DNA of 64,000 bases from Gemmatimonadota bacterium (GCA_046757485.1 JBHHYJ010000002.1:8073-72072), one strand, 5' to 3'; counted from the first letter of the stretch, positions 1 through 16,432 are shown. Translations and numbers: made by a program. The notes: a model not told the origin generated them from the sequence alone.

Positions 1-226
1 GGAGCTCGGACTCGTGTACGACATCGAGGTGGAGGACGGGAACGCCCGGGTGACCATGACTCTGACCAGCCCCGGGTGCCCGGCCGGCGGCCAGATTCTC
101 AGCGGCGCCCAGGCCGCCGCCGCCTCCGTGACGGGAGTGGAGACGGCGGAGGTGAACCTCGTGTGGAAGCCGTTCTGGACGCCGGACCGCATCGATCCGA
201 AGGTGCGGGCCGTGATGGGCTTCTGA
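1..226 (+). CDS. DUF59/MIP18-family Fe-S cluster assembly protein (SufT/PaaD-like), C-terminal part. The gene begins upstream of the window.
   Basis: The frame is open from position 2 (ELGLVYDIEV...). Motifs TMTLTSPGCP and LVWKPFWTPDRI are typical of the DUF59 family. Stop at 224-226. Confidence 0.6.
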   Translation, partial: ELGLVYDIEVEDGNARVTMTLTSPGCPAGGQILSGAQAAAASVTGVETAEVNLVWKPFWTPDRIDPKVRAVMGF

Positions 227-278
227 GACCCGGCATGCCGACGATACGACACGCGGAGCGGGCGCCTGCGCCCCGGGA

Positions 279-698
279 GTGGAGCTGAATCCGATGCTCC
301 TCCGCCTCTTCCTGCTCTTCACCCTCGTCCCTTTGGTGGAGCTTGTCGTCCTCATCCGGCTGGGAGCGCTTTTCGGATTCGGGCCGACGCTCCTCCTGGT
401 CCTCGGGACCGGGATGGCAGGGGCGTGGCTGGCCCGAAGGGAGGGACTGCGGAGCTGGCGCGCGGTCCAGGCCGAGCTCGGAGAGGGACGGTTGCCGGGC
501 GAGGAGCTGGTACACGGCCTCCTGATCCTGGGGGCCGGCATCGTCCTCATCACCCCGGGCGTCTTCACGGACCTGGCCGGGATTCTTCTGCTCGTGCGTC
601 CCGTCCGGACGGCGCTGATTCGGCGAGTGCGGACCCGGATGGAGCGAACCCTGGAGAGCGAGGCGGCCGACCGGCGGCCTCGGATCATCGAGGTGTAG
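279..698 (+). CDS. fxsA: FxsA family cytoplasmic membrane protein
   Basis: 139 aa. Two N-terminal TM helices (LLRLFLLFTLVPLVELVVLIRLG...), a conserved GxxGxxLxTPGxxTD-like core (LITPGVFTDLAGILLLV) and a basic tail. Probable true start is M at about 294. Confidence 0.65.
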   Translation: MELNPMLLRLFLLFTLVPLVELVVLIRLGALFGFGPTLLLVLGTGMAGAWLARREGLRSWRAVQAELGEGRLPGEELVHGLLILGAGIVLITPGVFTDLAGILLLVRPVRTALIRRVRTRMERTLESEAADRRPRIIEV

Positions 699-702
699 CG
701 GG

Positions 703-1347
703 ATGACGCGATGGGCCGTCAGTCGCTCCGGATGCCCGACCCGCGCCCGGAGGGAGCGGCCGCTCGCCGCGGCTCGCGCCTCGACGCGGAAGGGCTCGGT
801 CCGACGGCTCGCCGTGGCTCCGTTCGCGCTCGCCCTGGTGGCGCTCGCTCCGGCCGACTCGCGTCTGCCGTCGGCCTCGGGCGGGACTGTCCTCTCTACG
901 CCGTCCGCCGGCCTCTGGGCCTGCCCGACCGCGGACCCACAGAGGGTGCTCCTCAAAGCCACCTCCTCCACCGGCGGGGGGTCGGGCTACGTGGAGCTCA
1001 CGATGGCCACCTCGCCGTTCGGAGTCTCCGTCTCCCCGGCCGGACACTACCTGTTCGACCTCAAGGTGGCGGTTCAGCAGCTCCGTCGGCGACCCGGCCT
1101 CTCGTATGTCGTGTGGGTCGCCACCCCCGAGCTGGACAGGGTGAGGAAGCTCGGCGTGTTGGGAGAGGGCGGGGTCGTCTCGGGCCAGGTCGACTGGAAC
1201 AAGTTCCTCGTCTTCGTGACGGCCGAAACGAGCACGGAGGTCTCGACGTGGAAGGGCCCGATCCTCCTTACCGCTCTCTCCCCGAGCGGGCTGATGCACA
1301 CGATGCGAGGACACGGGATCTTCGAGGCACACGGCATCGGCTGCTGA
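703..1347 (+). CDS. Hypothetical secreted protein with a Met/His-rich C-terminus (possible periplasmic metal-binding protein)
   Basis: Signal-peptide-like LAVAPFALALVALAPADS. C-terminal MHTMRGHGIFEAHGIGC. The protein text is non-repetitive, whereas the overlapping frame 711-1400 is Arg/Gly low-complexity. It lies directly upstream of a multicopper oxidase. True start uncertain. Confidence 0.45.
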   Translation: MTRWAVSRSGCPTRARRERPLAAARASTRKGSVRRLAVAPFALALVALAPADSRLPSASGGTVLSTPSAGLWACPTADPQRVLLKATSSTGGGSGYVELTMATSPFGVSVSPAGHYLFDLKVAVQQLRRRPGLSYVVWVATPELDRVRKLGVLGEGGVVSGQVDWNKFLVFVTAETSTEVSTWKGPILLTALSPSGLMHTMRGHGIFEAHGIGC

Positions 1348-1416
1348 AGGCGTGGGCCGCGGCACAGCCACCCGGGAGCGTCGGTACCCGCTGCTCGTGA
1401 ACCGCTTCACCTCACC

Positions 1417-3141
1417 GTGAAGAGCCCGGGAGCCGCGTCCGCCGCTCTGCTGCTCGCCGTGCTCCCGCGCGTGACCGCGGGACAGGCCGGGGAGCGCGTG
1501 GAGACGCGGTCGGCCGGACAGGCGGAAGAGGAGGCTCTGGCCGCCCGCTGGCGGATGCCCCCCATGGAGATGGCGATGCCGATGCTCCCGGGGCTGCGGG
1601 ACCTCGTGCCCGATGTCTCCCCGTTCCTTCCCGGGCTGGGGGCAGACCTGACCGAGCTCCCGGAGGCGCGCCCTCCGTCCGTCGTCCGGCTGACCGACGG
1701 AGACACGCTCGACCTCGAGGCGGCCCTCCTGCGTCGCACGCTCGGGGACCGGGCCGTCAAGCTCTACGGTTTCAACGGAGAGCAGCCCGGCCCCCTGATT
1801 CGGGTTCGCCGGGGAGCCACCATCGTCGTCCGCTTCAGGAACCGGATCGAGCTTCCCATCACGCTCCGGTGGCACGGCGTCCGGCTGGAGAACCGTTACG
1901 ACGGCGTGCCCGGCCTGACCCAGAAGCCGGTCAGCCCCGGGGAGTCCTTCGTGTACCGGGTCCGGTTCGACGATCCCGGGCTTTTCTGGTATCACCCTCA
2001 TCAGCACGGGGAGATCGCCCAGGACCTCGGCCTGTACGGAAACATCCTCGTCGAGCCCGACCGGACGGACTACTACGCCCCGGTGAACCGGGAGGCGTTC
2101 CTCCTGCTCGACGACCTGCAGGTGGATGAGAAAGGGCTGCTGCCGTACGGGTTCGAGGCGCCGAACAACGCCCTCATGGGGCGGTTCGGCAATCTCCGCC
2201 TGGTGAACGGCGAGCCGGCGTACTCCCTCGAGGTCCACAGGGGAGAGGTCGTCCGGTTCTACGTCACCAACGCCTCGAACACGCGCACCTTCAACCTTTC
2301 CATGGGCCAGGCGCCGATGAAGCTGGTGGCCGCCGACCTGAGCAAGTACGAGCGGGAGGTCCGGGTGCCGAACGTGCCGGTCGCCCCGGGGCAGCGCTAC
2401 GTGATCGATGTCCACTTCCCCACCCCGGGCCGGGTGGCGATCACCAGCCACATCCAGGCGATGAACCATTTCGCCGGCGTGTTCGAGCCGCGGGTGGACA
2501 CGCTCGGAGCGGTGGTCGTGGACGAGAAGGCGGTGCAGGAGGAGTACGCCGAGGAGTTCGAGGAGCTCCGCGAGAACGAGGATGTGCGGGCCGACGTGGA
2601 GGGCCTGCGTGATTCCTTCGATCGACCCGTGGACCGGGAGCTGGTGCTCTCCGCCCGGGTAGGGGCCCTTCCCACCGTGGTCCTCGCGGTCATGGCGATG
2701 GACACGCTCTACTACCCACCGATCGAGTGGAACGACGCCATGCCGATGATGAACTGGCTCTCCACGGGTCGGGAGGTGCGGTGGATCGTGCACGAACCCG
2801 TCGCCGGCGGAGGGACGGCGGAGCTCCGACCGGCGGTCGGCTGGCGGTTTCGGCAGCACGACATCGTGAAGCTGCGGATTCGGAACCCCGCGCGCGGGTT
2901 CCATCCGATGCAACACCCGATTCATCTGCACGGACAGCGCTTCCTCGTCCTCGAGAGGGACGGAGTGCGGCAGTCCAACTTCGTGTGGCGGGACACGGTG
3001 CTCCTTCCGGTGGGGGCCACGGTGGATCTCCTGGTGGAGATGTCGAATCCGGGCCGCTGGATGCTGAACTGCCAGATTCCCGAGCACCTGGGATCCGGGA
3101 TGGCGATCACCTTCACGGTGCTTCCCTCTCCCGCCCGGTGA
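1417..3141 (+). CDS. Multicopper oxidase family protein (three-domain, laccase/CueO-like) with a non-canonical trinuclear copper site
   Basis: 574 aa with a Sec signal peptide. Cupredoxin motifs LRWHG, WYHPHQHG, HPIHLHG and C-terminal LNCQIPEHLGSGM. The T1 ligands Cys, His and Met are present, but the flanking T3 His residues are N and Q. GTG start. Confidence 0.85.
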   Translation: MKSPGAASAALLLAVLPRVTAGQAGERVETRSAGQAEEEALAARWRMPPMEMAMPMLPGLRDLVPDVSPFLPGLGADLTELPEARPPSVVRLTDGDTLDLEAALLRRTLGDRAVKLYGFNGEQPGPLIRVRRGATIVVRFRNRIELPITLRWHGVRLENRYDGVPGLTQKPVSPGESFVYRVRFDDPGLFWYHPHQHGEIAQDLGLYGNILVEPDRTDYYAPVNREAFLLLDDLQVDEKGLLPYGFEAPNNALMGRFGNLRLVNGEPAYSLEVHRGEVVRFYVTNASNTRTFNLSMGQAPMKLVAADLSKYEREVRVPNVPVAPGQRYVIDVHFPTPGRVAITSHIQAMNHFAGVFEPRVDTLGAVVVDEKAVQEEYAEEFEELRENEDVRADVEGLRDSFDRPVDRELVLSARVGALPTVVLAVMAMDTLYYPPIEWNDAMPMMNWLSTGREVRWIVHEPVAGGGTAELRPAVGWRFRQHDIVKLRIRNPARGFHPMQHPIHLHGQRFLVLERDGVRQSNFVWRDTVLLPVGATVDLLVEMSNPGRWMLNCQIPEHLGSGMAITFTVLPSPAR

Positions 3142-3830
3142 AGGAGAGCCCGGGCGTCGGACGGAGGTCCGCTCGTCGGCTCGCCCTCGCGGCGGCCCTG
3201 TGGGCCGGGATCGCCTGGATTCCGGCGGACGTCGCCCCGGCGAGCGGGGCAGGCGGTCCGCACGAGGCCAGGGGCCGGCTCGAAGGCCGGGTCTCCTGGA
3301 GTGGCGGCCCACTCCCCGAGTGGGAGAGCGTCACCGATGTCGTCGTGTACCTCCTCGGAGGTGACCTCGAGGACGCCACGCACACTCCGGCCGTGCCGGC
3401 CGTGCTCGCGCAGAAGGACTTCACGTACGTGCCGCACGTCCTCCCGATCGCCGTGCGCGCGGCGCTCACGATCACGAACGGCGACACGGCTCTGCACAAC
3501 ATTCACACATACAGCAAGGGCCGGCGCCGGAATCCGTCCTTCAACCGCGCCCAGCGGGCCCACACCACGCTGACGACGGCGTTCCGCGCCCCCGACAGCC
3601 TCCTCGTCCTGTGCGACATCCACCCGCAGATGGAGGCCCACATCATGGTCCTCCCGAACCCGTACTTCGCGAAGCCCGACGAGAAAGGCGCTTACACGAT
3701 CACGGAGATCCCGGCCGGCCGATACGAGCTGGTGGCCTGGCATCCGAGCTACACCTCGGTGCGAGACACGGTGGAGGTCGAGGCGGGGCGCACCACGCGG
3801 ACGGACCTCGTCTTCGCGGCCCAGCCATGA
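3138..3830 (+). CDS. Cupredoxin-like (type-1 copper) protein, secreted
   Basis: GTG start at 3138 overlaps the oxidase stop as GTGA. N-terminal GRRSARRLALAAALWAGIAW signal. His (ALHNIH) plus CDIHPQM (C-x2-H-x2-M) form a blue-copper ligand set. Confidence 0.6.
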   Translation: MKESPGVGRRSARRLALAAALWAGIAWIPADVAPASGAGGPHEARGRLEGRVSWSGGPLPEWESVTDVVVYLLGGDLEDATHTPAVPAVLAQKDFTYVPHVLPIAVRAALTITNGDTALHNIHTYSKGRRRNPSFNRAQRAHTTLTTAFRAPDSLLVLCDIHPQMEAHIMVLPNPYFAKPDEKGAYTITEIPAGRYELVAWHPSYTSVRDTVEVEAGRTTRTDLVFAAQP

Positions 3831-4068
3831 TCACGCCGCCGGCTCCCACCCCGGTCGCCCTTCGGCCTCGCCGCCGGCCATCGCCCCCCGTCCAGGTGCC
3901 GCCGCCATGGCCGCCGCACACGTGCGCGGACGGACCACGGCGAAGTACCTTCCGGTGCCAGGAGCCGGTCCGAGTCATGTCGCGGCCGCGCGCAGGGGTC
4001 TTTGGGTGCGCTCAGCCGCGACCGTGGGCCTCGAGTTCATCGTGACGACGTCGCAGCAGGAGGAAGAG

Positions 4069-5487
4069 ATGAGGCGAAGATTCCCGTCGGCTAAGAACCC
4101 TTTCACCTCGGCATGTGCCGGCGCCCTCCTCGTGGCGGCGGGTCCGGCGATCCTCGCCCACCCCGCTCTCGCCCAGCCGAGCCAGCCCGTGGTGACGCGC
4201 GGGACTCCCAACATCGAGGTCCTCGGGCACCGCCCGCTCGGGCCGGCGCTCAGCGTGGCAGACCTCGACGTCGAGCAGGAGCTTTCCCGGCCGTACGCCT
4301 ACGTCGCCCGGATGGCGTTCGGCCCGACGGGCACCAAGGGCACCGACATCATCGACATCAGCGATCCCTCGAGTCCGCGGGTGGTTTACCGGTGGCGGAT
4401 CGAGAACCAGGAGCTTCACCAACGGACGGGCGGGATGGACGTGAAGCACTTCAAGTGGAAGAACCGCTACTACGTCGTCCAATCCCTCCAGTTCGGCCAG
4501 GGAGGCCCGGACACGGACCTGGGGGCGGTCGTCCTCGACGTCACCGGACTCCCCGACGCCGCGAAGGTCAAGGAGGTGGCCCGCATCCGGGAGCCGGAGC
4601 ACCCCGGGGGTTTTCACAACATCTTCATCTACCGGCACTCCGACGGGCGGGTGTACCTCTTCACCACGATCCGGGGCCCGGGCGCCAACGTCTACGATCT
4701 GGGCAACGTCGTGGAGGGAAAGCCGGAGTCCGACTGGCGGGTGGCGAACGTCCCCGTGCCGCCGAGCCCGGAGTCCGCGGCCCTGCCGGTCCCCGGCGGG
4801 TTCTACCACGACTTCTACGTCGGCTTCCACCCGGCGACCGGCCAGGACCGTTTCTACGGGGGCGGGTCGGGCGGCTACTACATCTACGACGTGACCGACC
4901 TCCAGAGCCCGACGCTCCTCACCTCGATCACCGGCGTCTCCGGCGTCCGCTGGGGCCATACCTTCACCCCGACGCCCGATGGCAACTACGCCGTCGGCGA
5001 GACGGAGTACCAGTACGCCCCGCTCCGCATCTACGATCTCCGGCCCGGCCTGAACGGCGAGGTGCCGACGATCCGCGCCCCGATCGGCGCCTGGACAGCG
5101 AACTGGAAGAACCTGGCCCACAACCACGAGGTCCGTTGGCCGTACGTCTTCGTCTCCGGCTACCTGGACGGGCTCCAGGTGTTCGACATGCAGGACCCCG
5201 CGAACCCGATCACGGTGGGCTACTACGACACGTACCTCGGACCGTCGGCCGACCCCAGCAATCCCTCCTCCATCTTCAACGGGGCGTTCGGAGTGGACGT
5301 GCGGAACGCCGACGGCCTCATCGTCGTGAGCGACATGACGACCGGCTTCTGGACCTTCCGCATGGAGGGGTTCCAGGGGTGGAACGGCCACGACTGGGGA
5401 ATGCCGAACGTCTCCAGCGCCCAGGACTGGGAGAACGGTCCAGAGGGCGCCGTCCGGATGACGACCGACGAGGACAGCGGAGACTGA
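4069..5487 (+). CDS. Secreted LVIVD-repeat beta-propeller protein, tandem paralogue 1
   Basis: ATG at 4069 preceded by AGGAGGAAG. Signal peptide MRRRFPSAKNPFTSACAGALLVAAGPAILAHPALA. It has GLIVVSD-type LVIVD repeats. About 75-80% identity to the next two ORFs. Confidence 0.7.
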   Translation: MRRRFPSAKNPFTSACAGALLVAAGPAILAHPALAQPSQPVVTRGTPNIEVLGHRPLGPALSVADLDVEQELSRPYAYVARMAFGPTGTKGTDIIDISDPSSPRVVYRWRIENQELHQRTGGMDVKHFKWKNRYYVVQSLQFGQGGPDTDLGAVVLDVTGLPDAAKVKEVARIREPEHPGGFHNIFIYRHSDGRVYLFTTIRGPGANVYDLGNVVEGKPESDWRVANVPVPPSPESAALPVPGGFYHDFYVGFHPATGQDRFYGGGSGGYYIYDVTDLQSPTLLTSITGVSGVRWGHTFTPTPDGNYAVGETEYQYAPLRIYDLRPGLNGEVPTIRAPIGAWTANWKNLAHNHEVRWPYVFVSGYLDGLQVFDMQDPANPITVGYYDTYLGPSADPSNPSSIFNGAFGVDVRNADGLIVVSDMTTGFWTFRMEGFQGWNGHDWGMPNVSSAQDWENGPEGAVRMTTDEDSGD

Positions 5488-5494
5488 GAGGACC

Positions 5495-6892
5495 ATGAGA
5501 CACGGAACGGTGCGGGCGTGGGTGCCGGTTCTCCTGGCCGGGGGCGCCCTCGGGGCGCTCCCGCCGGCTCCGCTGGGAGCCCAGCAGGCGTACCTGGAGC
5601 GCCGGGGGGGCGGCATCGAGGTTCTCGGCCACCTGCCGCTGGGACCCGCTCTCAGCGTGGCCGACGTGGAGATCGAGCAGGATCTCTCCCGGCCGTTCGC
5701 CTACGTGGCCCGCATGCAGTATCGGGACGTCGGGGAGAAGGGGCTGGACGTCATCGACATCAGCGATCCCTCGAGTCCGCGGGTGATCTACCGGTGGCGG
5801 ATCGAGAACCAGGAGCTCCACCAGCGGACGGGCGGGATGGACGTGAAGCAGTTCAAGTGGAAGAGACGCTACTACGTCGTCCAGTCCCTCCAGTTCGGCC
5901 AGGGAGGGCCGGACCCGGATCTGGGGGCGGTCGTGCTCGACGTCACCGGGCTCCCTGATCCCGCGAAGGTGAAGGAGGTGGCCCGGATCCGGGAGCCCGA
6001 GCTGCCCGGGGGCTTCCACAACATCTTCGTGTACCGGCACTCCGACGGGCGGGTCTACCTCCTCTCCACCGTCTCCGGCCCGTTCGCCCACGTCTACGAT
6101 CTGGGGAACGTCGTGGAGGGGAAGGCCCGTGAAAGCTGGCTCGCGGCGCGGGTCCCCGTGCCCCCGGCGGCGGAGGAGCAGGGGCGTCGCACGGGCCGGC
6201 TGCGCGGCTACCACGACTTCTACGTCGGCTTCCACCCGGCCAGCGGCCAGGACCGCTTCTACGGGGGCGGCACCGGGGGATACTACGTGTACGACATCAC
6301 CGACCTGCGGAGCCCTCGCCTGCTCACCTCCATCGTGGGGGTGGCCGGCGTTCGCGGCGGACACACCTTCACGCCGACGCCCGACGGCCGCTATGCGGTC
6401 GGCGAGACGGAGTACCAGTACGCCCCGCTCCGCATCTACGATCTCCAGCCCGGCCTGAACGGCGAGCTGCCCGCGATCCGTCGCTCGATCGGCGCCTGGA
6501 CGGCGGACTGGAAGCACCTGTCCCACAACCACGAGGTCCGCTGGCCGTACGTCTTCGTCTCCGGTTACGAGGACGGGCTCCAGGTCTTCAGCCTCCTGGA
6601 TCCCGCGAACCCGGTGACCGTCGGGTACTACGACACGTACCCCGGCCCTCACAAGGTCGGGGCGTGCCGGGACCGGGTCTGCAACGGGGCGTTCGGGGTG
6701 GACGTGCGGAACGCCGACGGCCTCATCGTGGTCAGCGACTCGAGCACGGGCTTCTGGAGCTTCCGCATGGAGGGGTTCCAGGGGTGGAACGGCCGCGACT
6801 GGGGAGTGCCGAACATCTCCAGCGCCCAGGATTGGGAGAACGGTCCCGAGGGGGCCACCCGGGTCGCCGACGACGAGGATGCCGGAGGCTGA
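5495..6892 (+). CDS. Secreted LVIVD-repeat beta-propeller protein, tandem paralogue 2
   Basis: 465 aa. Signal peptide MRHGTVRAWVPVLLAGGALGAL. Long blocks of identity with paralogue 1 (IEVLGHxPLGPALSVAD, YVVQSLQFGQGGPD, WPYVFVSGY, GLIVVSD). Confidence 0.7.
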   Translation: MRHGTVRAWVPVLLAGGALGALPPAPLGAQQAYLERRGGGIEVLGHLPLGPALSVADVEIEQDLSRPFAYVARMQYRDVGEKGLDVIDISDPSSPRVIYRWRIENQELHQRTGGMDVKQFKWKRRYYVVQSLQFGQGGPDPDLGAVVLDVTGLPDPAKVKEVARIREPELPGGFHNIFVYRHSDGRVYLLSTVSGPFAHVYDLGNVVEGKARESWLAARVPVPPAAEEQGRRTGRLRGYHDFYVGFHPASGQDRFYGGGTGGYYVYDITDLRSPRLLTSIVGVAGVRGGHTFTPTPDGRYAVGETEYQYAPLRIYDLQPGLNGELPAIRRSIGAWTADWKHLSHNHEVRWPYVFVSGYEDGLQVFSLLDPANPVTVGYYDTYPGPHKVGACRDRVCNGAFGVDVRNADGLIVVSDSSTGFWSFRMEGFQGWNGRDWGVPNISSAQDWENGPEGATRVADDEDAGG

Positions 6893-6936
6893 ACCGACCT
6901 CCCAACAGACCAGCTTCCGGAGCCACAGAGGAGCCG

Positions 6937-8337
6937 ATGAAGCAGACTCGCCTTCCGAGACCGATTCCGATCTCCGCCCTTGCCCTGACCGCGACGCTCG
7001 GCGCGGGCCCGATCCCCGGCCACGGGCTTCGAGCCCAGGAGCGGGAGGGGTACCTGAGGAGGGGCACCGACAACGTCGAGGTGCTCAGCCATCTGCCTCT
7101 GGGCCCGGCGCTCAGCGTGGGCGACCTCGACATCGAGCAGGAGCTCTCGCGGCCGTTCGTCTACATCGCCCGCACCGCGGTCGGCCAGGTGGGCGAGCGG
7201 GGGATGGACGTCATCGACGTCGGCGACCCGCGCCATCCGAAGGTCATCTACCGGTGGCGGATCGAGAACCAGGAGCTCCACCAGGGTCGCGGCGGTCGGG
7301 ACCAGAAGCACTTCAAGTGGAAGGGACGCTACTACCATGCGATCTCGCTGCAGTTCGGGCAGGGCGGGCCGGACGCGGACCTGGGGGCGGTGATCCTCGA
7401 CGTGACCGGGCTCCCGGACCCGAAGAAGGTAAAGGAGGTGGCTCGCATCCGGGAGCCGGAGCTGCCCGGCGGGTTCCACAACATCTTCGTCTACCGGCAC
7501 TCCGACGGCCGGGTGTATCTGTTCACCACGCTCCGGGGGCCGGGCGCCAACGTCTACGATCTGGGGAGCCTCGTCGAGGGGAGGCCCGAGGCGGAGTGGA
7601 AGGTGGCCAACGTCCCCGTCCCGCCCGGGCCGGCGACGGGGGGCGGTCCCGGACAGGCGTTCTACCACGACTTCTACGTGGGCTTTCACCCGGCCAGCGG
7701 TCAGGACCGCTTCTACGGGGGCGGAGCGGGGGGCTACTACGTCTACGACGTCACCGACCTCCGGGAGCCGAAGCTCCTCACCTCGATCACGGGCGTCGCG
7801 GGGGTCCGCTGGGGCCACACCTTCACCCCGAGCCCCGACGGACGCTACGCGGTCGGCGAGACGGAGTACCAGTACGCCCCGCTTCGCGTCTACGATCTCA
7901 AGCCGGGCCTGGACGGTGAGGTGCCGACGATCCGCTCCTCGATCGGAGCCTGGACGGCGAACTGGCGGAACCTGGCCCACAACCACGAGGTCCGCTGGCC
8001 GTACGTCTTCGTCTCCGCCTACGAGGACGGTCTCCAGGTCTTCGGCCTGATGGACCCGAAGAATCCCGTCACCGTGGGCTACTACGACACGTACATCGGC
8101 CCCCACAAGGTGGGGCTGTGCGGCGACCGGATCTGCAACGGGGCGTTCGGGGTGGACGTGCGGAACGCCGACGGCCTCATCGTGGTGGGCGACATGAGCT
8201 CGGGCTTCTGGGCGTTTCGCCTGGAGGGTTTCGACGGCTGGAACGGGCACGACTGGGGGATGCCGAACATCTCCAGCGCCCAGGACTGGGAGCACGGCCC
8301 GGAGGACGCGGCGGCCGGGATGGAGGGCGGCCGCTAA
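6937..8337 (+). CDS. Secreted LVIVD-repeat beta-propeller protein, tandem paralogue 3
   Basis: ATG at 6937 with AGGAGC upstream. Signal peptide MKQTRLPRPIPISALALTATLGA. Same conserved blocks as paralogues 1 and 2. The upstream part of track ORF 6664-8337 is a spurious extension. Confidence 0.7.
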   Translation: MKQTRLPRPIPISALALTATLGAGPIPGHGLRAQEREGYLRRGTDNVEVLSHLPLGPALSVGDLDIEQELSRPFVYIARTAVGQVGERGMDVIDVGDPRHPKVIYRWRIENQELHQGRGGRDQKHFKWKGRYYHAISLQFGQGGPDADLGAVILDVTGLPDPKKVKEVARIREPELPGGFHNIFVYRHSDGRVYLFTTLRGPGANVYDLGSLVEGRPEAEWKVANVPVPPGPATGGGPGQAFYHDFYVGFHPASGQDRFYGGGAGGYYVYDVTDLREPKLLTSITGVAGVRWGHTFTPSPDGRYAVGETEYQYAPLRVYDLKPGLDGEVPTIRSSIGAWTANWRNLAHNHEVRWPYVFVSAYEDGLQVFGLMDPKNPVTVGYYDTYIGPHKVGLCGDRICNGAFGVDVRNADGLIVVGDMSSGFWAFRLEGFDGWNGHDWGMPNISSAQDWEHGPEDAAAGMEGGR

Positions 8338-8440
8338 GCCGGTCCGGCCCGTCCGGTCTGACTTCCTCTCAACGAGCTGCACCGTAACCGACCGTCCGCG
8401 GCGTCAAGCGGAGGCGGGAACCCGCGGCGAACCGCAAGCG

Positions 8441-9148
8441 TTGACGGTCAACAACCTGGCGCCGAACGACAGCCTGGCTTCGGCGATCAACGCGGCCACC
8501 TTCGTGCTCAAAGCGGACGTGATCAGCGCCAGCTGGGGGATCGGTCCGGCACCCGACCCCGCGATCGCCCAACAGCTCGAGTGGGCCGTCAAGGACGGAC
8601 GGAAGCCCGACCTGCCCTTCTTTCCCCCTCTGGGCACGCCCGTGGTCTTCTCGGCCGGCAACACGAGGGGTTCCGTCGCCTTCCCTGCCAGCGACTCGAA
8701 CGCGATCGCTGTGAGCGGGCTGGACCGCACGGGGGCCTTGTGGGAAGACCCCGACCCAACCCGCGGCAGCAACTTCGGGGCCGAGATCGAGATCGCCGCC
8801 TTCAGCGGCAGCGGCGCGGCGTGCTTCGGGGAGATCACGACGACGGACCTCTCGGGGGCGGAGGGGTGCAACAACGGGCCGGGGGGCAACGTGAACTACA
8901 CCACAGGGTTCAGCGGGACCTCGGCAGCGGCCCCGCAGGTGGCCGGCGCCATCGCGCTGCTCCTGCAGAGCGAGCCAGGCCTCACGGTCGCACAGGTCCG
9001 CCAGCGGCTGGCGAGCTCGGCGGACAAGGGGAATACAGGCTTCTGGAACAATTCCCTCAGGTTCGGCGCGGGGAAGCTGAACGTGGGCGCCCTGCTCGGC
9101 GTGTGGCCGCCGCCCGGGAGCTGTGCCCCGAACCAGGTCGTCTGCTGA
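8441..9148 (+). pseudogene. 5'-truncated subtilisin-like serine protease (peptidase S8) remnant
   Basis: Contains the S8 oxyanion-hole region VVFSAGN and the catalytic Ser motif GTSAAAPQVAGAIALL. It lacks the N-terminal signal/propeptide, the Asp (DTG) and the His (HGT) blocks. The only start is TTG at 8441, and the frame stays open upstream into paralogue 3 without a start codon. Confidence 0.55.
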
Positions 9149-9222
9149 GGGTGGAGGCGACGCTCGAGCGCTGCCGTCGCGTGTATAGAACGCCAGCCTG
9201 TGACGGGCACGGTAGCCGGCGC

Positions 9223-10419
9223 ATGCGCTTCACCGGACGGCCTGGGTCCGGGCGAGGGAGGCTCCCTCTGACCGTGATGGTTCTCGGCCTGTCGCTTCCC
9301 GGCTGCTCGGACTCGACCGGCCCCGACGAGCCCATCGGACCCGAGGGTCCGTGGCTTTCGGTCCGCGTGGCGAAAGGCGGGGCGTTCACCTGCGGCCTGA
9401 CCGCCGAGCGGGAAGCCTTCTGTTGGGGAGGGAACGCGGATGGGCAGCTGGGGAACGGGACCCGCGAGGGAAGCCTCAGTCCGGGGCCGGTGGTCGGCGG
9501 GCTCACCTTCGAGCAGATCAGCCCGGGGATTGCGCACACCTGCGCCGTGACGCCGGAGGGGAAGGCGTTCTGCTGGGGAAGGAACGACCGCACCGGCGCG
9601 CTGGGGGACGGAACGACGATGGACCGGCTGGCGCCGACCCCCGTGGCCGGCGGGCTCAGCTTCCGACAGATCAGTGCCGGGAGCGCTCACACCTGCGCGC
9701 TGACGCCGGCGGGGGAGGCGTTCTGCTGGGGGAACGACGCGCACGGCCAGCTCGGAGATGGACAGAGCAACGGCGGCCCGAACCCGCTCCCGGCTCCGGT
9801 GGCCGGTGGCCTCACCTTCCAGCAGATCAGTGCGGGCCAGTTCGGGACCTGCGGCCTGACACGTGAGGGGAAGGCGTTCTGCTGGGGCGCCAACCACAAG
9901 GGCACGCTCGGGGACGGGACGATGACGGACCGGGCCACCCCCGGCCCCGTGGCGGGAGGTTTGAGCTTCGCCCGGATCAGCGCAGGGCTCCGCCACGTGT
10001 GTGGCGTGACCCCAGAGGGGGAAGCTTATTGCTGGGGTAGGAACAGCTTAGGTGCCCTGGGCGATGGCGCGATGGTCGATCGCCCGGTACCCACCCGCGT
10101 GGCCACCGAGCTACGGTTCCAACAGATCAGTGCGGGCGAGCAGAGCTGTGCGCTGACGCGCGAGGGTCAAGCCTTCTGCTGGGGGGACAACAGCTTCGGC
10201 GAGCTGGGCGACGGCACGACGATGCATCGGCTCACGCCGACGCCGGTGGCCGGCGGGCTCAGCTTCCACGAGATCAGCACCGGCTTCAGCAGCAGCTGTG
10301 GAGTGACCCTCGACGGAGAGGCGTTCTGTTGGGGCGCTCGTGGGCTCGTCGGTGACGGGACCAACATGGATCGCCTCGTGCCCACCCGAATCCCGCCACC
10401 GCAGACCCGGCAGGGTTAG
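9223..10419 (+). CDS. RCC1-repeat (regulator of chromosome condensation-like) beta-propeller lipoprotein
   Basis: About seven repeats of the form GxxHTCALT(x)G(x)AFCWGxNxxGQLGDG. N-terminal MRFTGRPGSGRGRLPLTVMVLGLSLPGC ends in a lipobox. The upstream part of track ORF 8581-10419 overlaps the S8 remnant in another frame and is rejected. Confidence 0.75.
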   Translation: MRFTGRPGSGRGRLPLTVMVLGLSLPGCSDSTGPDEPIGPEGPWLSVRVAKGGAFTCGLTAEREAFCWGGNADGQLGNGTREGSLSPGPVVGGLTFEQISPGIAHTCAVTPEGKAFCWGRNDRTGALGDGTTMDRLAPTPVAGGLSFRQISAGSAHTCALTPAGEAFCWGNDAHGQLGDGQSNGGPNPLPAPVAGGLTFQQISAGQFGTCGLTREGKAFCWGANHKGTLGDGTMTDRATPGPVAGGLSFARISAGLRHVCGVTPEGEAYCWGRNSLGALGDGAMVDRPVPTRVATELRFQQISAGEQSCALTREGQAFCWGDNSFGELGDGTTMHRLTPTPVAGGLSFHEISTGFSSSCGVTLDGEAFCWGARGLVGDGTNMDRLVPTRIPPPQTRQG

Positions 10420-10438
10420 GATGGCTTCGATGCGACCG

Positions 10439-12505
10439 TCATGATTTCGACGTTCTATCCCCGTCCCCGGCCGCTTCCTTCGGCTTCACCTGGATGAGCC
10501 GGTCGATGAGGAGTCGGCCGGCCCCGCTCCTTACCTCCAGGTGCAGCTCCCCGGGCCGCCGCGGCGTGATCTCGAAGTCGAACGTCTCCCCGATGCTCAC
10601 CGTCCGCTCCGCGGGCACCAGCGCTCGCTGGTGGGCCGGCAGGTCCCAGCCGTCCTCGGCCACCGGCCGCCACAGGACCGGGGCGCCGCCCCGGACGAGA
10701 CGCACCCGCAGGTTGCCGTTTCCCAACGTGATGTTCATGAGCCGCAGTCGGTAGGTCGTTCCGACCCGAAACTCCGTCGGCCCGGGCTTGGACGTCCCGT
10801 TCAACTGAGGTCCCTGGCCCGTCGGGGAGAGCCCGAGCAGCAGGATCCGATCCGTCTCGGGGTCCCACTCCTCGCCCTCGTCCAGCACCACGAAGGCCCC
10901 GTACAGCCCCGAGCCCTGCTGGCGCAGGTCGCTCACGTGGGTGTGGTACATGTAGCTTCCGGCCCTGGGCGGCGTGATCCGCATCTCGAAGGAGTCTCCC
11001 GGCATGATCGCCGGGGTCAGCTTCTTCGGGTAGCCGCTCGCCCCCGCCACCCCGTCGAAGTAGCTCTCGATCTCCAGCCCGTGCCAGTGGACCTGGGTGG
11101 GCTCCGGGGTCCGGTTGATCACCGTCACGCTGGTGGGTTCTCCCTTCCACAGGACGATGGGGGAGCCGGGCAGGCGCACGGAGTCCGGGGGCGGCTCCCG
11201 CTCCCCCTCCTGGAGGACGTAGGCGTAGCGTTTCTGGAACGGCTTCTGGAGGAACGCGCGGGTCGCGGAGTCGGCCGGCACGGAGTCCGCCTGCACGAAG
11301 AGGCGCAGCCGCCGGCGCCGCGGCTCCCGGGGAACCCATCCCTCGGGCGGCCGGATGTAGGTGAAGAGGAGGAGGCCTCCCATGCCAGTCTCCGCGTGGT
11401 GCTCGGCGTCCCCCTCGTGCCCGACGAAGATCTTCCGGAAGCGGACCGCCTCCGTCTCCTCCTCCCCCGGCCGGAGAGAGGGGTTGGGGACGACGTGGAA
11501 GCTGTTGTGGCAGTGGAAGATCCACCCTCCTGGCCGGTCCGGCGACCAGACGATCTTCATCGTGGTCCCCGGCGCCATCCGCTCGGTGACCGCCATGCGC
11601 CGCTGGGCCAGCCAGTAGATCGTGTCCCGGCCGATGTCGCCGCGGGAGTCCACCCGGTAGAAGAAGCCGTGCAGGTGCATCGGGTGGACCGCACCCGAGG
11701 CGTTGATCAGTCGCCAGCGGATCGAGTCTCCGAGCGCGTAGGTGAAGCGCTCGGTGAGCGGCCACGGCCGCCCGTTGATCGTCAGGAACTCCTTGCCGAA
11801 ATCGGGCTCGCCGTTCGGGTGCTTGCCGGGGATCCAGATCTGCATCACGAAAACGCGGTCCGTGGGCGGGCCCGCGGCGTCCGGTGGATCCACGATGAGC
11901 GCGCCGGCCAGGGGGGCGTCCTCGGCGATCCGGATCGCCGTGGGCGAGCCCTTCAGACGCCCCCGGTAGTAGTAGGTCCCCTCGGCGTCGGCCGGAAAGC
12001 GAACCTCCCGGCTCTCCCCCGGCCGCACGACGAGGCTGTCCATCGCCGCCACCCGGCGGGCCGCGAGCCCCCACACGACGAGATCCGCATCCAGCGGGTT
12101 CCGCACCGTCGCCCGGATCTCGGTCCCCAGGGGAACGCGGATCATCGGGCCGGGAATCTGGAGCTCCTTCCCGGCCTCCCCGAACGCCAGGACCTCGCCT
12201 CCCGGCTCTTCCTCGCCCAGCAGGTGCCACACGCCGCGCCGCACCTCGAGCTCCAGGGTCAGCACGCCGTCTCGTAGCGTGCCGGCCGGCGTCTGGTTGT
12301 CGTTCCACCCCACGCTCGGAAGGCGACCGACCGACGAGAGCTCGCCTCCCGCGGCGTTTCCTCGCACATCGGAGAGCGCGGGGGGCGCCGACGGCCAATC
12401 CGAGCCGGGGCCCGACGGCCCCGGGCCGGGGAGCCACACCCAGAGACCCGCGAGCCCCGCCAAGCTCAACCAGGTGAAACGCTGTCCAAGGCTTTCGCCC
12501 CTCAT
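10439..12505 (-). CDS. Multicopper oxidase family protein, four cupredoxin-like domains with unusual motif order
   Basis: 688 aa with signal peptide. HPMHLHG and HCHNSFH (T1/T3 set) at about aa 265-330 precede VHWHG and YMYHTHV (T2/T3 set) at about aa 470-520. The first and last cupredoxin-like domains lack copper ligands (LVVWGLAARR in place of HWHG). Confidence 0.85.
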   Translation of the reverse strand: MRGESLGQRFTWLSLAGLAGLWVWLPGPGPSGPGSDWPSAPPALSDVRGNAAGGELSSVGRLPSVGWNDNQTPAGTLRDGVLTLELEVRRGVWHLLGEEEPGGEVLAFGEAGKELQIPGPMIRVPLGTEIRATVRNPLDADLVVWGLAARRVAAMDSLVVRPGESREVRFPADAEGTYYYRGRLKGSPTAIRIAEDAPLAGALIVDPPDAAGPPTDRVFVMQIWIPGKHPNGEPDFGKEFLTINGRPWPLTERFTYALGDSIRWRLINASGAVHPMHLHGFFYRVDSRGDIGRDTIYWLAQRRMAVTERMAPGTTMKIVWSPDRPGGWIFHCHNSFHVVPNPSLRPGEEETEAVRFRKIFVGHEGDAEHHAETGMGGLLLFTYIRPPEGWVPREPRRRRLRLFVQADSVPADSATRAFLQKPFQKRYAYVLQEGEREPPPDSVRLPGSPIVLWKGEPTSVTVINRTPEPTQVHWHGLEIESYFDGVAGASGYPKKLTPAIMPGDSFEMRITPPRAGSYMYHTHVSDLRQQGSGLYGAFVVLDEGEEWDPETDRILLLGLSPTGQGPQLNGTSKPGPTEFRVGTTYRLRLMNITLGNGNLRVRLVRGGAPVLWRPVAEDGWDLPAHQRALVPAERTVSIGETFDFEITPRRPGELHLEVRSGAGRLLIDRLIQVKPKEAAGDGDRTSKS

Positions 12506-13110
12506 CGGTCCTCCCCCGCGCCGACGTCAGGAAGGATCATGATGTGGGAGAAGAGCTGTCCGGAGTTCATCATCCACGGCGCGCCGTCGCGTCGCTCCTT
12601 CGAGAGACCGACCGCCTCGGCCGTCGCGTACGGCGTGACGAGGATGTAGAGGCGCTCCACCTCATCGCTCAACGCGTTTGTGCCCGCGTCATAGCCGTCG
12701 GCGGGGCCGCTGAGCACGTAGAGTGCCGCCGGGCCATCCGGAAGGTCGAGGTCGCCGGCCTTCGCCTCCGCATTCAACCTGGCCGTGACGTCGCTCGCCT
12801 CCAGCCCGAGTCGCCGAAGCTCGCGCCGCCGCTCGAGGAGAGGTCGCAAGGACTCTGCATAGCACAGGGACCGAAACCGGTCATCGTCCGGATCGTCCGC
12901 CTCGCACACGATTCCGTTGGTGCCGCGCCGGAGCTCGACGAGGGGCTGGCCGTCTCGGTATCCGAGCACGGTCGCCTCCTCGCGCAGCGCCTCGGGCAGG
13001 GGAAGGACCGCCGAGGCCAGCTGTTGCGAGAGCGGCGGCTGCTGGCCCGTCAGGAGAGGAGGCAGGCAGAGCAGCAGAAAGCTCGGGATGGCAAGCGTCC
13101 ATCGTCGCAT
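12502..13110 (-). CDS. Hypothetical secreted protein, first gene of the oxidase operon
   Basis: 202 aa. Signal peptide MRRWTLAIPSFLLLCLPPLLTG. Its stop overlaps the downstream oxidase start by 4 nt. No recognisable family. Confidence 0.5.
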   Translation of the reverse strand: MRRWTLAIPSFLLLCLPPLLTGQQPPLSQQLASAVLPLPEALREEATVLGYRDGQPLVELRRGTNGIVCEADDPDDDRFRSLCYAESLRPLLERRRELRRLGLEASDVTARLNAEAKAGDLDLPDGPAALYVLSGPADGYDAGTNALSDEVERLYILVTPYATAEAVGLSKERRDGAPWMMNSGQLFSHIMILPDVGAGEDR

Positions 13111-13264
13111 GAGGTCCTCCCTATGTCCCGGTCAGCTGTCGCCCCCGGAGTGGCGGAGAACGGAGGCTACGAGGAGGTCCGCCCGCCGCGGGCGGCCGGA
13201 CGCACACCGCGGTTATCGGATCGAGCGACCTCGGCACAAGCTTGGCGAGCCGTCGTCTCCCCGT

Positions 13265-13283
13265 CGTTAGCTTCGCGCTAACG
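13265..13283. promoter_or_regulatory. Palindrome CGTTAGC-TTCGC-GCTAACG between the SARP gene 3' end and the promoter region of the hypothetical-protein/oxidase operon. An extra GCTAACG half-site lies at 13324-13330.
   Basis: Read directly from sequence. It lies about 155 nt upstream of the operon start codon (13110, minus strand). Confidence 0.5.
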
Positions 13284-13343
13284 CAGGCCGAAGCGCCTCC
13301 GACGACCCGCTCCGAGCCGGCGCGCTAACGGCTCCGGCCTGCA

Positions 13344-16300
13344 TCAGCGGAGCTCGGCCAGGCGGTGGCGGGCAGCGGCCACGGTGCTCTCGAGCTCCGG
13401 CTCGGCGGCTGTCCACAGCTCGACGAAGCGAGCGTAGTGAGTGGCGGCCTGTGGACCGTTGCCCAGCACGTCGAGGATCTGGGCGCGACGGAGGTGGGAG
13501 GGGGCCAGGAAAGGCAGATCGTGCCCGGCGGGATCCGGAAAGGTCGAGTACCAGCGCATTGCCTCGGTCGCTCGCCCCAGCTCCTGATTCACGACTCCGC
13601 GCAGGTAGCGCTCGTAGCCGCGAGGATAGTCCAGCAGGTGCTCGTAGGACGCCCGTGGAGGAAGGGGGAGGCCGTCGAGAATCACGCGGGCCTTCTCCGG
13701 ATTCCCTTCCCGCCGGGCGGCTTCCGCCCGAAGCACCCCCGCCAGCCGCCGCGCCAATCGGGACCCCGGACCTTCCTCCACCGCCAGGGTGTCGATGAGC
13801 CGGCGCGCCGTCCGCGCGTCCCCCATGCGCAGGGAGAGCAACCCCTCCAGGTAATACCGGCGAGGCCGGTACAGGCCAGGCCACAGGATCGGGGGAAACT
13901 CCGCGCTCTGCCACCAGATCGGGTCACTCCGCGGGGGGAGCGGCCGGTTCCGCTCCAGCGCGTCCAGGGCCCCCCACAGGCTGTCCCGCGACTCCAGCGA
14001 GTGGGGAGCGAGCGGAAGCACAGCCGCCATGGCTCGATACTCCAGCACCCGGGCCCTCGGCAGAGACCCCGATCTCCGCAACAGCTCCCCGGCTTCCCGA
14101 AACCGCCCCTGAGCCAGGAGGAGCTGGCCAAGGAGCAGCTGGAGCTTCGCCCGTTCCGCTCGGGGGAGCTCCCCCGCGAGCACGTAGCGGGCCATCCGGA
14201 CGGCACCTTCCAGATTGTTCGTGTTCGAGGCGACGCTCGCGAGGACGTGTCGGGCGCGAACCGGGGCCGCCGCGACAGCTCGAATCGCTCGTTCCTGCCG
14301 AGCGAGATCTCCGGAGAGAAACGCCCGCAGGGCTTCAAGCTCCAGGGCCCACCGGCCCGTGGCACGGTATGCGTGAGCGAGGAGGGTGAGAGAGTCCAGC
14401 TCGGCGACGTTCCTTTCGCGAGCCGCCAGCCGGGCCAGATGGACGATCGGCTCGACGCGCGAGGGCTCCAGGGCTACGGCCCGCTCGAGCGCCTCCCGCG
14501 CTTCCAGCGACGCATGGCCGAGGCTGGGTCCCCAGTGGAAGCGAAGCTCGCCGAGCTGTTCCCAGGCCTCCGCGTGGCTCGGTCGCAGCGTGACCGCCTC
14601 CCGATAGTACTCCTCGGCCGAGTCCACGACACCTGCCAGGTGATACCGCCACGCCGCGACGAGCAGGCTGTCGTCCCGGGAGAGCCGGTCCGCATGGCGC
14701 AGGGCCGCTCTGGCGGCGGGGACGGGGATCCCCGAGCGTCCGCCCGCGTACGCCGCGCTGCTCAGACGATAATGGGCCAGCGCGAAGGCCGAGTCCTCGC
14801 GCACGGCTTCCTGGTACTCCCGGACCGCTTCCTCGTAGCGGCCGGCGCGCAGGGCTTCCTCTCCACGCAGGAACTCCTTGAGCGCATTCAGGTTCTCGGT
14901 CGCTCGCGTCGCCCGCCGCGCGACCTGGGTGACGCTCCGCAGACCCAGGAGCTGCGCCGCGAGCCGATCGGCCAGCGTGAATACGTCAGCCGTGGAAGCT
15001 TCCACGACTGCCTCCGTGGGACCGCCGAGGCCGAAGTGGTCGCGCCCGTACAACGCGGCACGCACCCGGAGCCTGCCGCCCACCTCGGTGATCTCTCCCA
15101 GAACGAAGGAGCCGGCTCCGAACCGGCGTGCCACCGCGGCCGCGGCGTCCGGCTCCCATCGGGGCTCGGAGCCGCCATCCAGGAAGCCGAGCAGGGAGCG
15201 AGAATCCACGCTCCGAAGAGCTCCGGCTCCATCCAGGTTAGCGGACAGGAGGCCGACCATCCCCTCCCGCAGGAACGCGAACTCCTCGTCCCCCTGGTAG
15301 GCGAACGGAAAGACGGCGACCACGCCCTCGGACCACGTCTCGGAGGAAGACTCGGTCCGGCCGACCAGCAGCCCGATCGCCAGCAGAGCGAGCGCACTCG
15401 CCGACAGCCCACTCATGACGGCCCACCGGCGCAAACCCCGCCAGGATCGCCGGGCGGCTGCCCGCGGGGGTCCCGCCTCCGACTCTCGTCGGCCGGGGGA
15501 CGCCGTCCCGTCGGTCGGCACCGGGCCATCGGTCGAACCGCTCTCGGGCGACCGCGACGCCACCGAGGCCCCCGCCACGGCGGCCCCTGCCACCGGCTCC
15601 GTGGCGGCGTCACCCCGAGAGCGGAGGCCGACGCCGGCCCGGGCCCCGGCCCGGGCGGGCCCCGACCGTTTCACCTCCGCCACCACGGCCCGGGTCTGCG
15701 GTGAGGGCTCCACCCCGTACGCCGCCGAGACCCGAGCCGCGAACTCCTCGTACGCCCGGACCGCCCCCGTCCGGTCGCCGGCGCTCACGAGCAGAGAGAG
15801 CAGACGGCGCGCGACGACCTCATCGTCCCGCGACAGCACGAGGGCACGCCGAACGTAGTGTACGGCCAGATCATGGTTTCCGTCCGCCTCGGCCGCCGCC
15901 GCGAGCCGGCCGGCGACGGCCACCGCCCGGTGGCAGAGGCGACCCCGCTCCGCCTCCAACCAGCGCTCGAACTCGAACGCCTCCCCGATGAAGAAGCCCT
16001 CCAGAAGGTCTCCCCGATACAGCTCCAGGGCATCCGCCTCTCGACCCGCTTCCAGGCAGCGCTCGAACTCGACCGCGTCACACTGCACCCGGGCGAGATC
16101 CACGCGCAGTTCCCCATCGCCTCGGGAGAGGATCGTCTCGGCACCCAGGGCGCGGCGCAGGTAGTGGATCGCGTTCCGCAGCGCTCCGCGGGCGCGCGCC
16201 TCGTCCGACTCCGGCCAGAAGACGCCGAGGAGCGCGTCCCGGCGCTCCGGGCCACGGGCGCTCCGCAGCGTCAGGTAGGCGAACAGGGCCAACCGGCGCG

Positions 16301-16382
16301 GCTGCGCGAGCACGGAACGGATCTCTTGGCCGCCCAGATGACGCAACTCGACGGCACCCAGGAGGCGAAACTCGATCGTCAT
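13344..16382 (-). CDS. SARP/AfsR-family (BTAD) transcriptional regulator with a transmembrane segment and C-terminal TPR-repeat region
   Basis: 1012 aa. N-terminal OmpR-type winged helix plus bacterial transcriptional activation domain (LLGAVELRHLGGQ...LALFAYLTL..., RGDLLEGFF, ERWLEAER). One TM helix (WAVMSGLSASALALLAIGLLVG) follows, then about 600 aa of TPR-like repeats. Confidence 0.8.
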   Translation of the reverse strand: MTIEFRLLGAVELRHLGGQEIRSVLAQPRRLALFAYLTLRSARGPERRDALLGVFWPESDEARARGALRNAIHYLRRALGAETILSRGDGELRVDLARVQCDAVEFERCLEAGREADALELYRGDLLEGFFIGEAFEFERWLEAERGRLCHRAVAVAGRLAAAAEADGNHDLAVHYVRRALVLSRDDEVVARRLLSLLVSAGDRTGAVRAYEEFAARVSAAYGVEPSPQTRAVVAEVKRSGPARAGARAGVGLRSRGDAATEPVAGAAVAGASVASRSPESGSTDGPVPTDGTASPGRRESEAGPPRAAARRSWRGLRRWAVMSGLSASALALLAIGLLVGRTESSSETWSEGVVAVFPFAYQGDEEFAFLREGMVGLLSANLDGAGALRSVDSRSLLGFLDGGSEPRWEPDAAAAVARRFGAGSFVLGEITEVGGRLRVRAALYGRDHFGLGGPTEAVVEASTADVFTLADRLAAQLLGLRSVTQVARRATRATENLNALKEFLRGEEALRAGRYEEAVREYQEAVREDSAFALAHYRLSSAAYAGGRSGIPVPAARAALRHADRLSRDDSLLVAAWRYHLAGVVDSAEEYYREAVTLRPSHAEAWEQLGELRFHWGPSLGHASLEAREALERAVALEPSRVEPIVHLARLAARERNVAELDSLTLLAHAYRATGRWALELEALRAFLSGDLARQERAIRAVAAAPVRARHVLASVASNTNNLEGAVRMARYVLAGELPRAERAKLQLLLGQLLLAQGRFREAGELLRRSGSLPRARVLEYRAMAAVLPLAPHSLESRDSLWGALDALERNRPLPPRSDPIWWQSAEFPPILWPGLYRPRRYYLEGLLSLRMGDARTARRLIDTLAVEEGPGSRLARRLAGVLRAEAARREGNPEKARVILDGLPLPPRASYEHLLDYPRGYERYLRGVVNQELGRATEAMRWYSTFPDPAGHDLPFLAPSHLRRAQILDVLGNGPQAATHYARFVELWTAAEPELESTVAAARHRLAELR

Positions 16383-16413
16383 GCGAAGAGCCCGACCTCG
16401 GAAAGGAAGAGGG

Positions 16414-16432
16414 CGTTAGCTGACAGCTAACG
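16414..16432. promoter_or_regulatory. Perfect palindrome CGTTAGCTG-A-CAGCTAACG (half-site CGTTAGC, N5 spacer), about 32-50 nt upstream of the SARP regulator start
   Basis: Read directly from sequence. Same half-sites and spacing as the palindrome at 13265-13283. Confidence 0.5.

Follow-up and report, generated by a model that had tools for sequence, protein, structure and literature searches.

Old tandem triplication of a putatively enzymatic beta-propeller gene in a conserved oxidase-linked module of a Gemmatimonadota bacterium

We analyzed a 64,000-nucleotide (nt) stretch of DNA from a Gemmatimonadota bacterium (GCA_046757485.1, JBHHYJ010000002.1:8073-72072), hereafter the window, in which three consecutive genes encode paralogous beta-propeller proteins; all coordinates count from the first letter of the window. 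The triplication is old and specific to this lineage, and the triplicated gene looks, by its conservation and context, like that of an enzyme. The GC content of the window is ~70%, and nine closely packed genes on the + strand extend from FxsA (216-698) to an RCC1-repeat gene (9223-10419); a scan of positions 1-17000 against Rfam yielded no match. Exactly three copies of the propeller gene, designated c1, c2 and c3, were detected by tblastn in the 64 kb. Comparisons were made with 80 loci from GTDB species representatives (the reference set) and with 80 metagenome loci (the metagenome set). The main features are as follows, with protein lengths in amino acids (aa).

216-698, + strand: FxsA
703-1347, + strand: orf703, a small conserved protein (214 aa), gene 1 of the module, beside the propeller in ~65 of 80 reference loci
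1417-3141, + strand: MCO1, a three-domain multicopper oxidase (Pfam Cu-oxidase_3, Cu-oxidase, Cu-oxidase_2), gene 2 of the module
3138-3830, + strand: accessory gene (230 aa) with a CarboxypepD_reg domain (Pfam), outside the general module
4069-5487, + strand: propeller copy 1 (c1, 472 aa), the most conservative copy
5495-6892, + strand: propeller copy 2 (c2, 465 aa)
6937-8337, + strand: propeller copy 3 (c3, 466 aa), the most derived copy
8441-9148, + strand: remnant of an S8 subtilase gene (Pfam Peptidase_S8)
9223-10419, + strand: putative lipoprotein with RCC1 repeats (7-bladed; Pfam), a neighbour outside the module
10439-12505, - strand: second multicopper oxidase (688 aa) with the canonical HCH motif (Pfam Cu-oxidase_3 and Cu-oxidase_2, two matches each)

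The three propeller proteins each have a hydrophobic N-terminus that ends in an A-x-A/Q-type cleavage context, in keeping with an initial annotation of this DNA that described three consecutive secreted paralogues of ~465 aa. Their C-termini are acidic and carry no recognisable anchor or sorting domain. The genes are separated by very short spacers (7 and 44 nt), each is preceded by its own Shine-Dalgarno-like sequence, and the DNA repeat unit has a period of 1402-1460 nt. Tandem paralogy is clear, but the protein identity of 75-80% given in that annotation was set somewhat too high, the observed range being 72-77% (72-74% in global and 74-77% in local or trimmed alignments). The DNA blocks described there as near-identical are not so: DNA identity among the copies is 80-83%, reaches 90% in the best 300-nt block, and the longest exact runs between copies measure 32-55 nt. 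At 100% identity, the c2 product corresponds to an NCBI entry from an 84,128-bp contig, which bears the name 'LVIVD repeat-containing protein [Gemmatimonadota bacterium]'.

In a neighbour-joining tree with 83 homologues, c1, c2 and c3 are monophyletic (bootstrap 77.5%), and all three share the derived substitutions A310G and F322Y at columns that are otherwise nearly invariant, so that tandem expansion within this lineage is well founded. Resolution within the clade is weak (50% bootstrap for c2 with c3, which also have a P-to-S substitution in common). The variable sites are divided 127/111/106 among the three possible pairings, a near-star pattern which indicates that two duplications occurred in quick succession. 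For the mature part of the proteins, the synonymous divergence (dS) is 0.44-0.51 despite a GC content at third codon positions (GC3) of 92%, the nonsynonymous divergence (dN) is 0.17, and their ratio, omega, is 0.33-0.38. A GENECONV-style run test of the three copies found no long conversion tracts; the sole significant run (12 variable sites within 26 nt, c1 vs. c2) reflects a cluster of c3-specific changes. Taken together, the level of DNA identity, the absence of exact runs longer than 55 nt, dS of ~0.5 and the lack of conversion tracts show that the copies are neither near-identical nor recent. The triplication is therefore lineage-specific and old, and the copies now evolve independently, contrary to the earlier view of a recent expansion that forms a recombination hotspot.

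For 78 of the 80 reference loci, the copy most similar to the single-copy propeller gene is c1. Across 190 alignment columns in which the other homologues reach 95% conservation or more, c1 deviates at 4, c2 at 8 and c3 at 15, compared to a median of 1 for the other family members; several of the c3 deviations (M121R, V134H, V135A and Q136I) cluster in blade 2. All family-invariant residues are retained in all three copies and, with omega of 0.33-0.38, this shows that the copies are under purifying selection. Such a pattern agrees with functional divergence or with a partial relaxation of constraint rather than with decay. A search of the JGI metagenome collection revealed no closer relative of c3, with a best match at 73%. 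As a separate observation, c2 and c3 share an HKVGxCxDRxC loop (Cys-x4-Cys, residues ~393-403), whereas neither c1 nor the family consensus has cysteines there; judging from the sequence, a disulfide may staple this loop in the derived copies only.

Copy number does vary between lineages, as had been proposed. Most close relatives have one copy. In the reference set, 75 of 80 loci contain no second propeller gene within 10 kb to either side, whereas 17 of the 80 metagenome loci are multi-copy, with 2 to 6 propeller genes, and include arrays in which three, four or six propeller genes precede orf703 and the oxidase. Arrays of three to six paralogues with 36-71% mutual identity occur in metagenome loci L097 (1967-12350), L104 (5495-11379), L111, L122, L115 and L135, several of which have the pair of orf703 and oxidase genes downstream, and Rhodothermales possess a conserved set of two or three divergent propeller paralogues. 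The multi-copy arrays in other lineages indicate that tandem expansion is a recurrent habit of this family, of which the triplet in the window is one independent instance; copy number changes on an evolutionary scale rather than through an active hotspot. A Marinacidobacterales locus (L056, 10001-12642) contains a tandem pair of truly recent origin, with 93% protein identity.

Conservation across phyla is high. The best 120 database matches, which come from Gemmatimonadota, Acidobacteriota, Rhodothermales and one gammaproteobacterial metagenome-assembled genome (MAG), are 64-75% identical over nearly the full length, so that the copies in the window are barely closer to each other than to orthologues in other phyla. 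Assignment to a named family is less straightforward. The LVIVD label is thin at the level of Pfam, where the LVIVD profile (PF08309, gathering score 20.2) recognises a single repeat in c2 (25.7 bits), scores just below that value in c1 (20.0 bits) and does not match c3. The choice-of-anchor B model (TIGR04312) gives 61, 43 and 37 bits, all below its cutoff of 100 and over model positions 275-363 of 364 only; the C-terminal 90 residues of the propellers align to the end of this model, and the propellers have no C-terminal sorting signal.

The fold itself is better supported. The structure prediction for one paralogue that the initial annotation had proposed was carried out on c1, with an AlphaFold2 model built on 86 sequences (pLDDT 88, pTM 0.87), and the 28 strands of this model correspond to seven blades. 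The predicted fold is of the LVIVD type: each of the seven blades contains a hydrophobic strand followed by a D-x-S/T-x-P motif, with IIDISDP, VVLDVTGLPDP, YIYDVTDLQSP and LQVFDMQDPANP as examples of a likeness to LVIVD (PF08309) that recurs once per blade, and the top Foldseek matches are all 7-bladed. The first PDB match of the c1 model is 5hrm (Foldseek E = 2.4e-12, TM-score 0.58, 16% identity), followed by generic WD40 propellers. This structure, Sb-PTE, the binuclear-Mn phosphotriesterase (haloalkylphosphorus hydrolase) of Sphingobium sp. TCM1, is likewise a 7-bladed propeller (~495 aa) with LVIVD-like strand-turn motifs, and it is the only PDB entry matched by sequence profile (E = 0.018), with the alignment falling at these motifs.

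The residues that are invariant across the 86 homologues include the histidines H54, H117, H183, H190, H247, H297, H351 and H353, and the carboxylates D65, E69, D124, D248, E311, E313 and E354. When the strands of the model are assigned with DSSP, H117, H183, H247, H297 and H351/H353 are located where one and the same strand begins at its N-terminal end, or immediately ahead of it, in a series of five consecutive blades. Equivalent positions in successive propeller blades form a ring around the axis, and this recurrence of histidine from blade to blade suggests a metal site at the tunnel mouth. A larger ring of seven or eight histidines was also considered and was dropped because only five of them are found at equivalent strand starts. 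Nearly every oxidase-linked paralogue, down to ~50% identity, retains H54, H117, H183, H190, H247, H297 and H351 (position 117 is Leu in one of them), whereas these histidines are lost in the class of 36-40% identity and in most of the distant subfamilies, which ties these residues to the specific function of the oxidase-linked clade. The first propeller copy of L097, a member of the 36-40% class, lacks most of the conserved histidines.

The propeller genes are not isolated. Homologues of both orf703 and MCO1 lie beside the propeller gene in ~65 of the 80 reference loci, and the same linkage was also found in 14 of the 27 metagenome loci of at least 6 kb. The gene order is orf703-oxidase-propeller in close Gemmatimonadota, as in the window, and propeller-orf703-oxidase in other lineages, and the remaining neighbours are lineage-specific housekeeping genes. 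From these sequence comparisons, orf703, the oxidase and the propeller constitute an uncharacterised, exported three-gene module that seems to serve metal handling and is probably related to copper. We found no functional study of this propeller family, and no description of the propeller and oxidase module, in the searchable literature, so that the earlier statement that the function of LVIVD propellers in bacteria is essentially unknown holds for this family; one preprint only speculates that an LVIVD protein mediates attachment.

The orf703 product belongs to no Pfam or NCBIfam family and is 'hypothetical' in every source. Its homologues share an N-terminal cysteine that, by eye, is in a lipobox-like position, as well as an invariant C-terminal motif, SPSGxMHTMxGHGxF...C. 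AlphaFold2 predicts a beta-sandwich core (residues 80-192, pLDDT above 90) whose structural matches are weak (E of at least 0.01) and, as a lead only, include the Cu/Fe-binding proteins P19, HftA and Tp34. On these grounds, orf703 is a putative metal-binding or metal chaperone lipoprotein, with copper as the likely metal.

MCO1 contains the three domains of its family, with Pfam scores of 105, 49 and 103 bits for Cu-oxidase_3, Cu-oxidase and Cu-oxidase_2, and Met-rich motifs (WRMPP..MPMLPGL and EWNDAMPMMN) are conserved throughout its family. Canonical copper-ligand motifs (the full set being HxHG, HxH, HxxHxH and HCHxxxHxxxxM) are present in 56 of 58 syntenic oxidases; only the enzyme in the window and that in L059 carry RWHG together with NCQIPEH. 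In MCO1, HWHG has thus become RWHG and HCHIAEH has become NCQIPEH, so that three of the eight histidines of the trinuclear cluster are lost, whereas the type-1 Cys, His and Met are intact, and the protein departs from its family at 29 of the 200 alignment columns with conservation of 90% or more. The degenerate oxidase, encoded at 1417-3141 (+) in the window and at 2678-4369 in L059, may have been converted into an electron-transfer or binding protein, as far as can be judged from its ligand motifs. The accessory gene at 3138-3830 has a homologue only in L059 (1989-2642), the other locus with a degenerate oxidase. In its product, the CarboxypepD_reg domain (35 bits) is C-terminal to a cupredoxin-like pattern, and the ligand pattern HN...C-x2-H-x2-M (HN...LCDIHPQM), read by eye, suggests a blue-copper site. 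In the genome represented by the window, the module is evolving atypically in all its parts.

Downstream of the triplet, the initial annotation had correctly recognised an S8 protease remnant without its N-terminal half, which begins 103 nt after c3, and an RCC1-repeat lipoprotein. The remnant, annotated by NCBI as a 235-aa S8 peptidase, covers only positions 99-288 of the 288 of the Peptidase_S8 profile (E = 2.9e-22) and corresponds to residues 368-560 of a 582-aa relative, so that ~355 N-terminal residues are missing. Of the catalytic triad, the Ser motif (GTSAAAP) is present, as is the oxyanion motif (SAGN), and the Asp and His are lacking; the His motif HGT(H/A)VAG of the homologues lies upstream of the point where the remnant begins. 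Its homologues are few and at most 50-60% identical, and its GC3 is still 0.91. The end of the third repeat unit is at ~8353, and homology to S8 can be recognised from ~8441-8474 onwards. The RCC1 protein is matched by WD40_RLD (228 bits, cutoff 150), RCC1_2 (188 bits, in 7 stretches) and RCC1 (179 bits); it has, by eye, a lipobox-like LSLPGC after a hydrophobic stretch, and its gene contains internal DNA repeats of ~150 nt.

The proposal that the array disrupted the protease gene is not supported. No S8 or RCC1 homologue was found beside the propeller in the 160 related loci, and no other piece of an S8 gene, including the missing N-terminal half, is present in the window. Two homologues of the remnant were found in other Gemmatimonadota contigs, within repeated cassettes (L081, 1-7837; L083, 1-5910) that combine S8 genes (~580 aa) with lipoprotein genes (~380-400 aa) and include truncated or split S8 copies with no propeller nearby: L083 contains a 274-aa S8 copy with 66% identity to part of its 582-aa neighbour (residues 321-578), and in L081 an S8 gene is broken into pieces of 440 and 192 aa. 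The cassette lipoproteins, which have no Pfam match, share a CS(D/E)xTGP N-terminus with the RCC1 protein of the window, and BLAST detected no similarity between them and the RCC1 protein beyond this N-terminus. Judging by these sequences, the S8 remnant and the RCC1 gene are probably the residue of a decayed S8-plus-lipoprotein cassette and unrelated neighbours of the triplet, and truncation of S8 genes appears to be characteristic of such cassettes.

The cross-phylum identity, the invariant His, Asp and Glu residues and the synteny with the oxidase together make the propeller look like an enzyme. We accordingly favour, at slightly better than even chances and on the combined basis of sequence comparison and a structural model, the reading that the locus holds an old, lineage-specific triplication of an enzyme-like propeller within a conserved, oxidase-linked module. 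Under this hypothesis, each copy would be a soluble periplasmic or secreted metalloenzyme with an active site at the mouth of the central tunnel, built from H117, H183, H247, H297 and H351, to which the invariant carboxylates D248, E311, E313 and E354 may contribute, and which would hold a bi- or multinuclear metal centre. The small lipoprotein orf703 would deliver the metal, for which copper is favoured by the gene context and Mn, Zn or Fe by the nearest solved structure, and the co-encoded oxidase would serve as a redox partner or process the product. The copies could then be diverging isoenzymes, along a gradient from c1 (most conservative) to c3 (most derived), and the S8 remnant and the RCC1 lipoprotein would come from another, decayed cassette located downstream by chance.

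Several observations weigh against this reading. The placement of the histidines at the tunnel mouth follows from their periodicity relative to the DSSP strands and not from coordinates, and H54, H190 and H254 are at the opposite strand ends in the model and may belong outside a shared site. The partner oxidase, having lost three trinuclear-cluster histidines, is a poor fit to simple passage of electrons to O2. Omega of 0.33-0.38 is high for so conserved a family and could denote relaxed constraint on redundant copies, and the similarity to Sb-PTE is only slightly better than that to generic WD40 propellers.

An analogy to such an arrangement can be found among copper enzymes. The CuZ domain of nitrous-oxide reductase and thiocyanate dehydrogenase are exported 7-bladed propellers in which histidines of successive blades hold multinuclear copper, and their partners are redox domains of the cupredoxin type and dedicated lipoproteins that act as copper chaperones, such as NosL. 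The resemblance of the propeller module to these systems is conceptual only: neither nitrous-oxide reductase nor thiocyanate dehydrogenase was among the top 50 Foldseek matches or in the PDB profile search at E of at most 10, and nosDFYL-like genes are absent here. Extending the favoured reading in this direction, the oxidase-linked propellers could form a new class of exported enzymes with multinuclear metal, possibly copper, in which a His centre assembled blade by blade is loaded by the lipoprotein with the MHTMxGHG motif and coupled to a dedicated oxidase, and in which the recurrent arrays of 2-6 copies, this triplet included, are sets of isoenzymes with distinct substrates in Gemmatimonadota, Rhodothermales and Acidobacteriota of marine and soil habitats; we put this forward as a speculation that is unlikely to hold.

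The strongest competing explanation assigns the propellers a hydrolytic and not a redox function. They would be binuclear-metal hydrolases of the Sb-PTE kind, acting on phosphate, sulfate or similar esters, and the link to the oxidase would be metabolic, for example through oxidation of a released phenol. This proposal gains from the position of 5hrm as both the best structural and the only sequence-profile match, and from the invariant carboxylates beside the histidines (H247-D248, H353-E354 and E311/E313), which are typical of Mn/Zn/Fe hydrolase sites; Sb-PTE itself is, according to the title of the paper that describes it, a metalloenzyme with a binuclear centre in a 7-bladed propeller. The identity to 5hrm is, however, only 16% and the TM-score 0.58, and a hydrolase leaves unexplained both the invariant Met/His motif of the lipoprotein and the tight synteny, in either order, across phyla. 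We know of no report of Sb-PTE beside a multicopper oxidase or an orf703-like gene, and we consider the hydrolytic alternative improbable, if worth keeping in view. Less probable again is a role as periplasmic metal-buffering or scaffold proteins of a copper-homeostasis cluster, with the extra copies adding capacity. Gene amplification is a common response to metal stress, the oxidase is closest to CueO and CopA, although far below their cutoffs, and the partner proteins contain Met-rich and Met/His motifs. An effect of dosage would, however, predict near-identical copies, whereas these have diverged and keep only the invariant core; full-length identity of 65-75% across phyla is rare for a buffer protein, and the genes seen beside the module include none of the efflux or regulator genes that characterise cop/cus clusters.

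The initial annotation itself amounts to a further alternative, namely a recently amplified array of secreted or surface-exposed, adhesin-like LVIVD proteins, the expansion of which truncated the S8 gene and created a hotspot of recombination and copy-number change. It is compatible with the tandem layout and the spacers of 7 and 44 nt, with the position of the S8 remnant ~100 nt past c3, with the differences in copy number between lineages, and with the first description of LVIVD repeats in cell-surface proteins (PMC2447325). The age of the copies largely refutes it (80-83% DNA identity, dS ~0.5, exact runs of at most 55 nt and no conversion tracts), and a surface-protein array agrees poorly with the absence of an anchor or sorting domain, the enzyme-like conservation across phyla with invariant His, Asp and Glu, and the conserved oxidase synteny. 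The supposed disruption of the S8 gene is at odds with the lack of any relative with an intact S8 gene at this place, the lack of an N-terminal half in the window and the occurrence of truncated S8 genes elsewhere without propellers. We therefore regard this scenario as very unlikely. An assembly artefact, in which orthologues of co-occurring strains were stitched in tandem, comes to mind because the source is a MAG contig and the array was found in this contig only, with no independent assembly. The junctions, however, consist of unique sequence with separate ribosome-binding sites; the copies differ at ~20% of DNA positions, so that assemblers would not chain them; the Cys-loop variant is present in both c2 and c3, and the derived residues of all three copies are absent from other taxa; and comparable arrays exist in many independent contigs. 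Such an artefact is accordingly extremely improbable.

A gene triplication alone would be ordinary, and the present case owes its value to the nature of the gene that was triplicated. The combination of enzyme-like conservation, linkage to an oxidase and a lipoprotein, and repeated arrays makes the module a testable candidate for a new periplasmic metalloenzyme system, the hosts of which are abundant but poorly cultured marine, sponge-associated and soil bacteria. The genome represented by the window is an informative outlier among them, with three diverging propellers and a partner oxidase that lacks three of the trinuclear-cluster histidines.

Beyond the RCC1 gene, a copper-oxidase cluster lies on the - strand (10439-13110), in which the gene for the second, 688-aa oxidase is preceded and overlapped by that of a 202-aa secreted protein of an unknown family. 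A relationship between orf703 and this 202-aa protein was tested, and the two proved to be unrelated. Directly adjoining the cluster is a gene for a 1012-aa regulator of the SARP/AfsR-like type, with BTAD and TPR domains (13344-16382, - strand). Weak homologues of the 202-aa protein (29-30% identity) are encoded near the propeller module in loci L047, L051 and L055.

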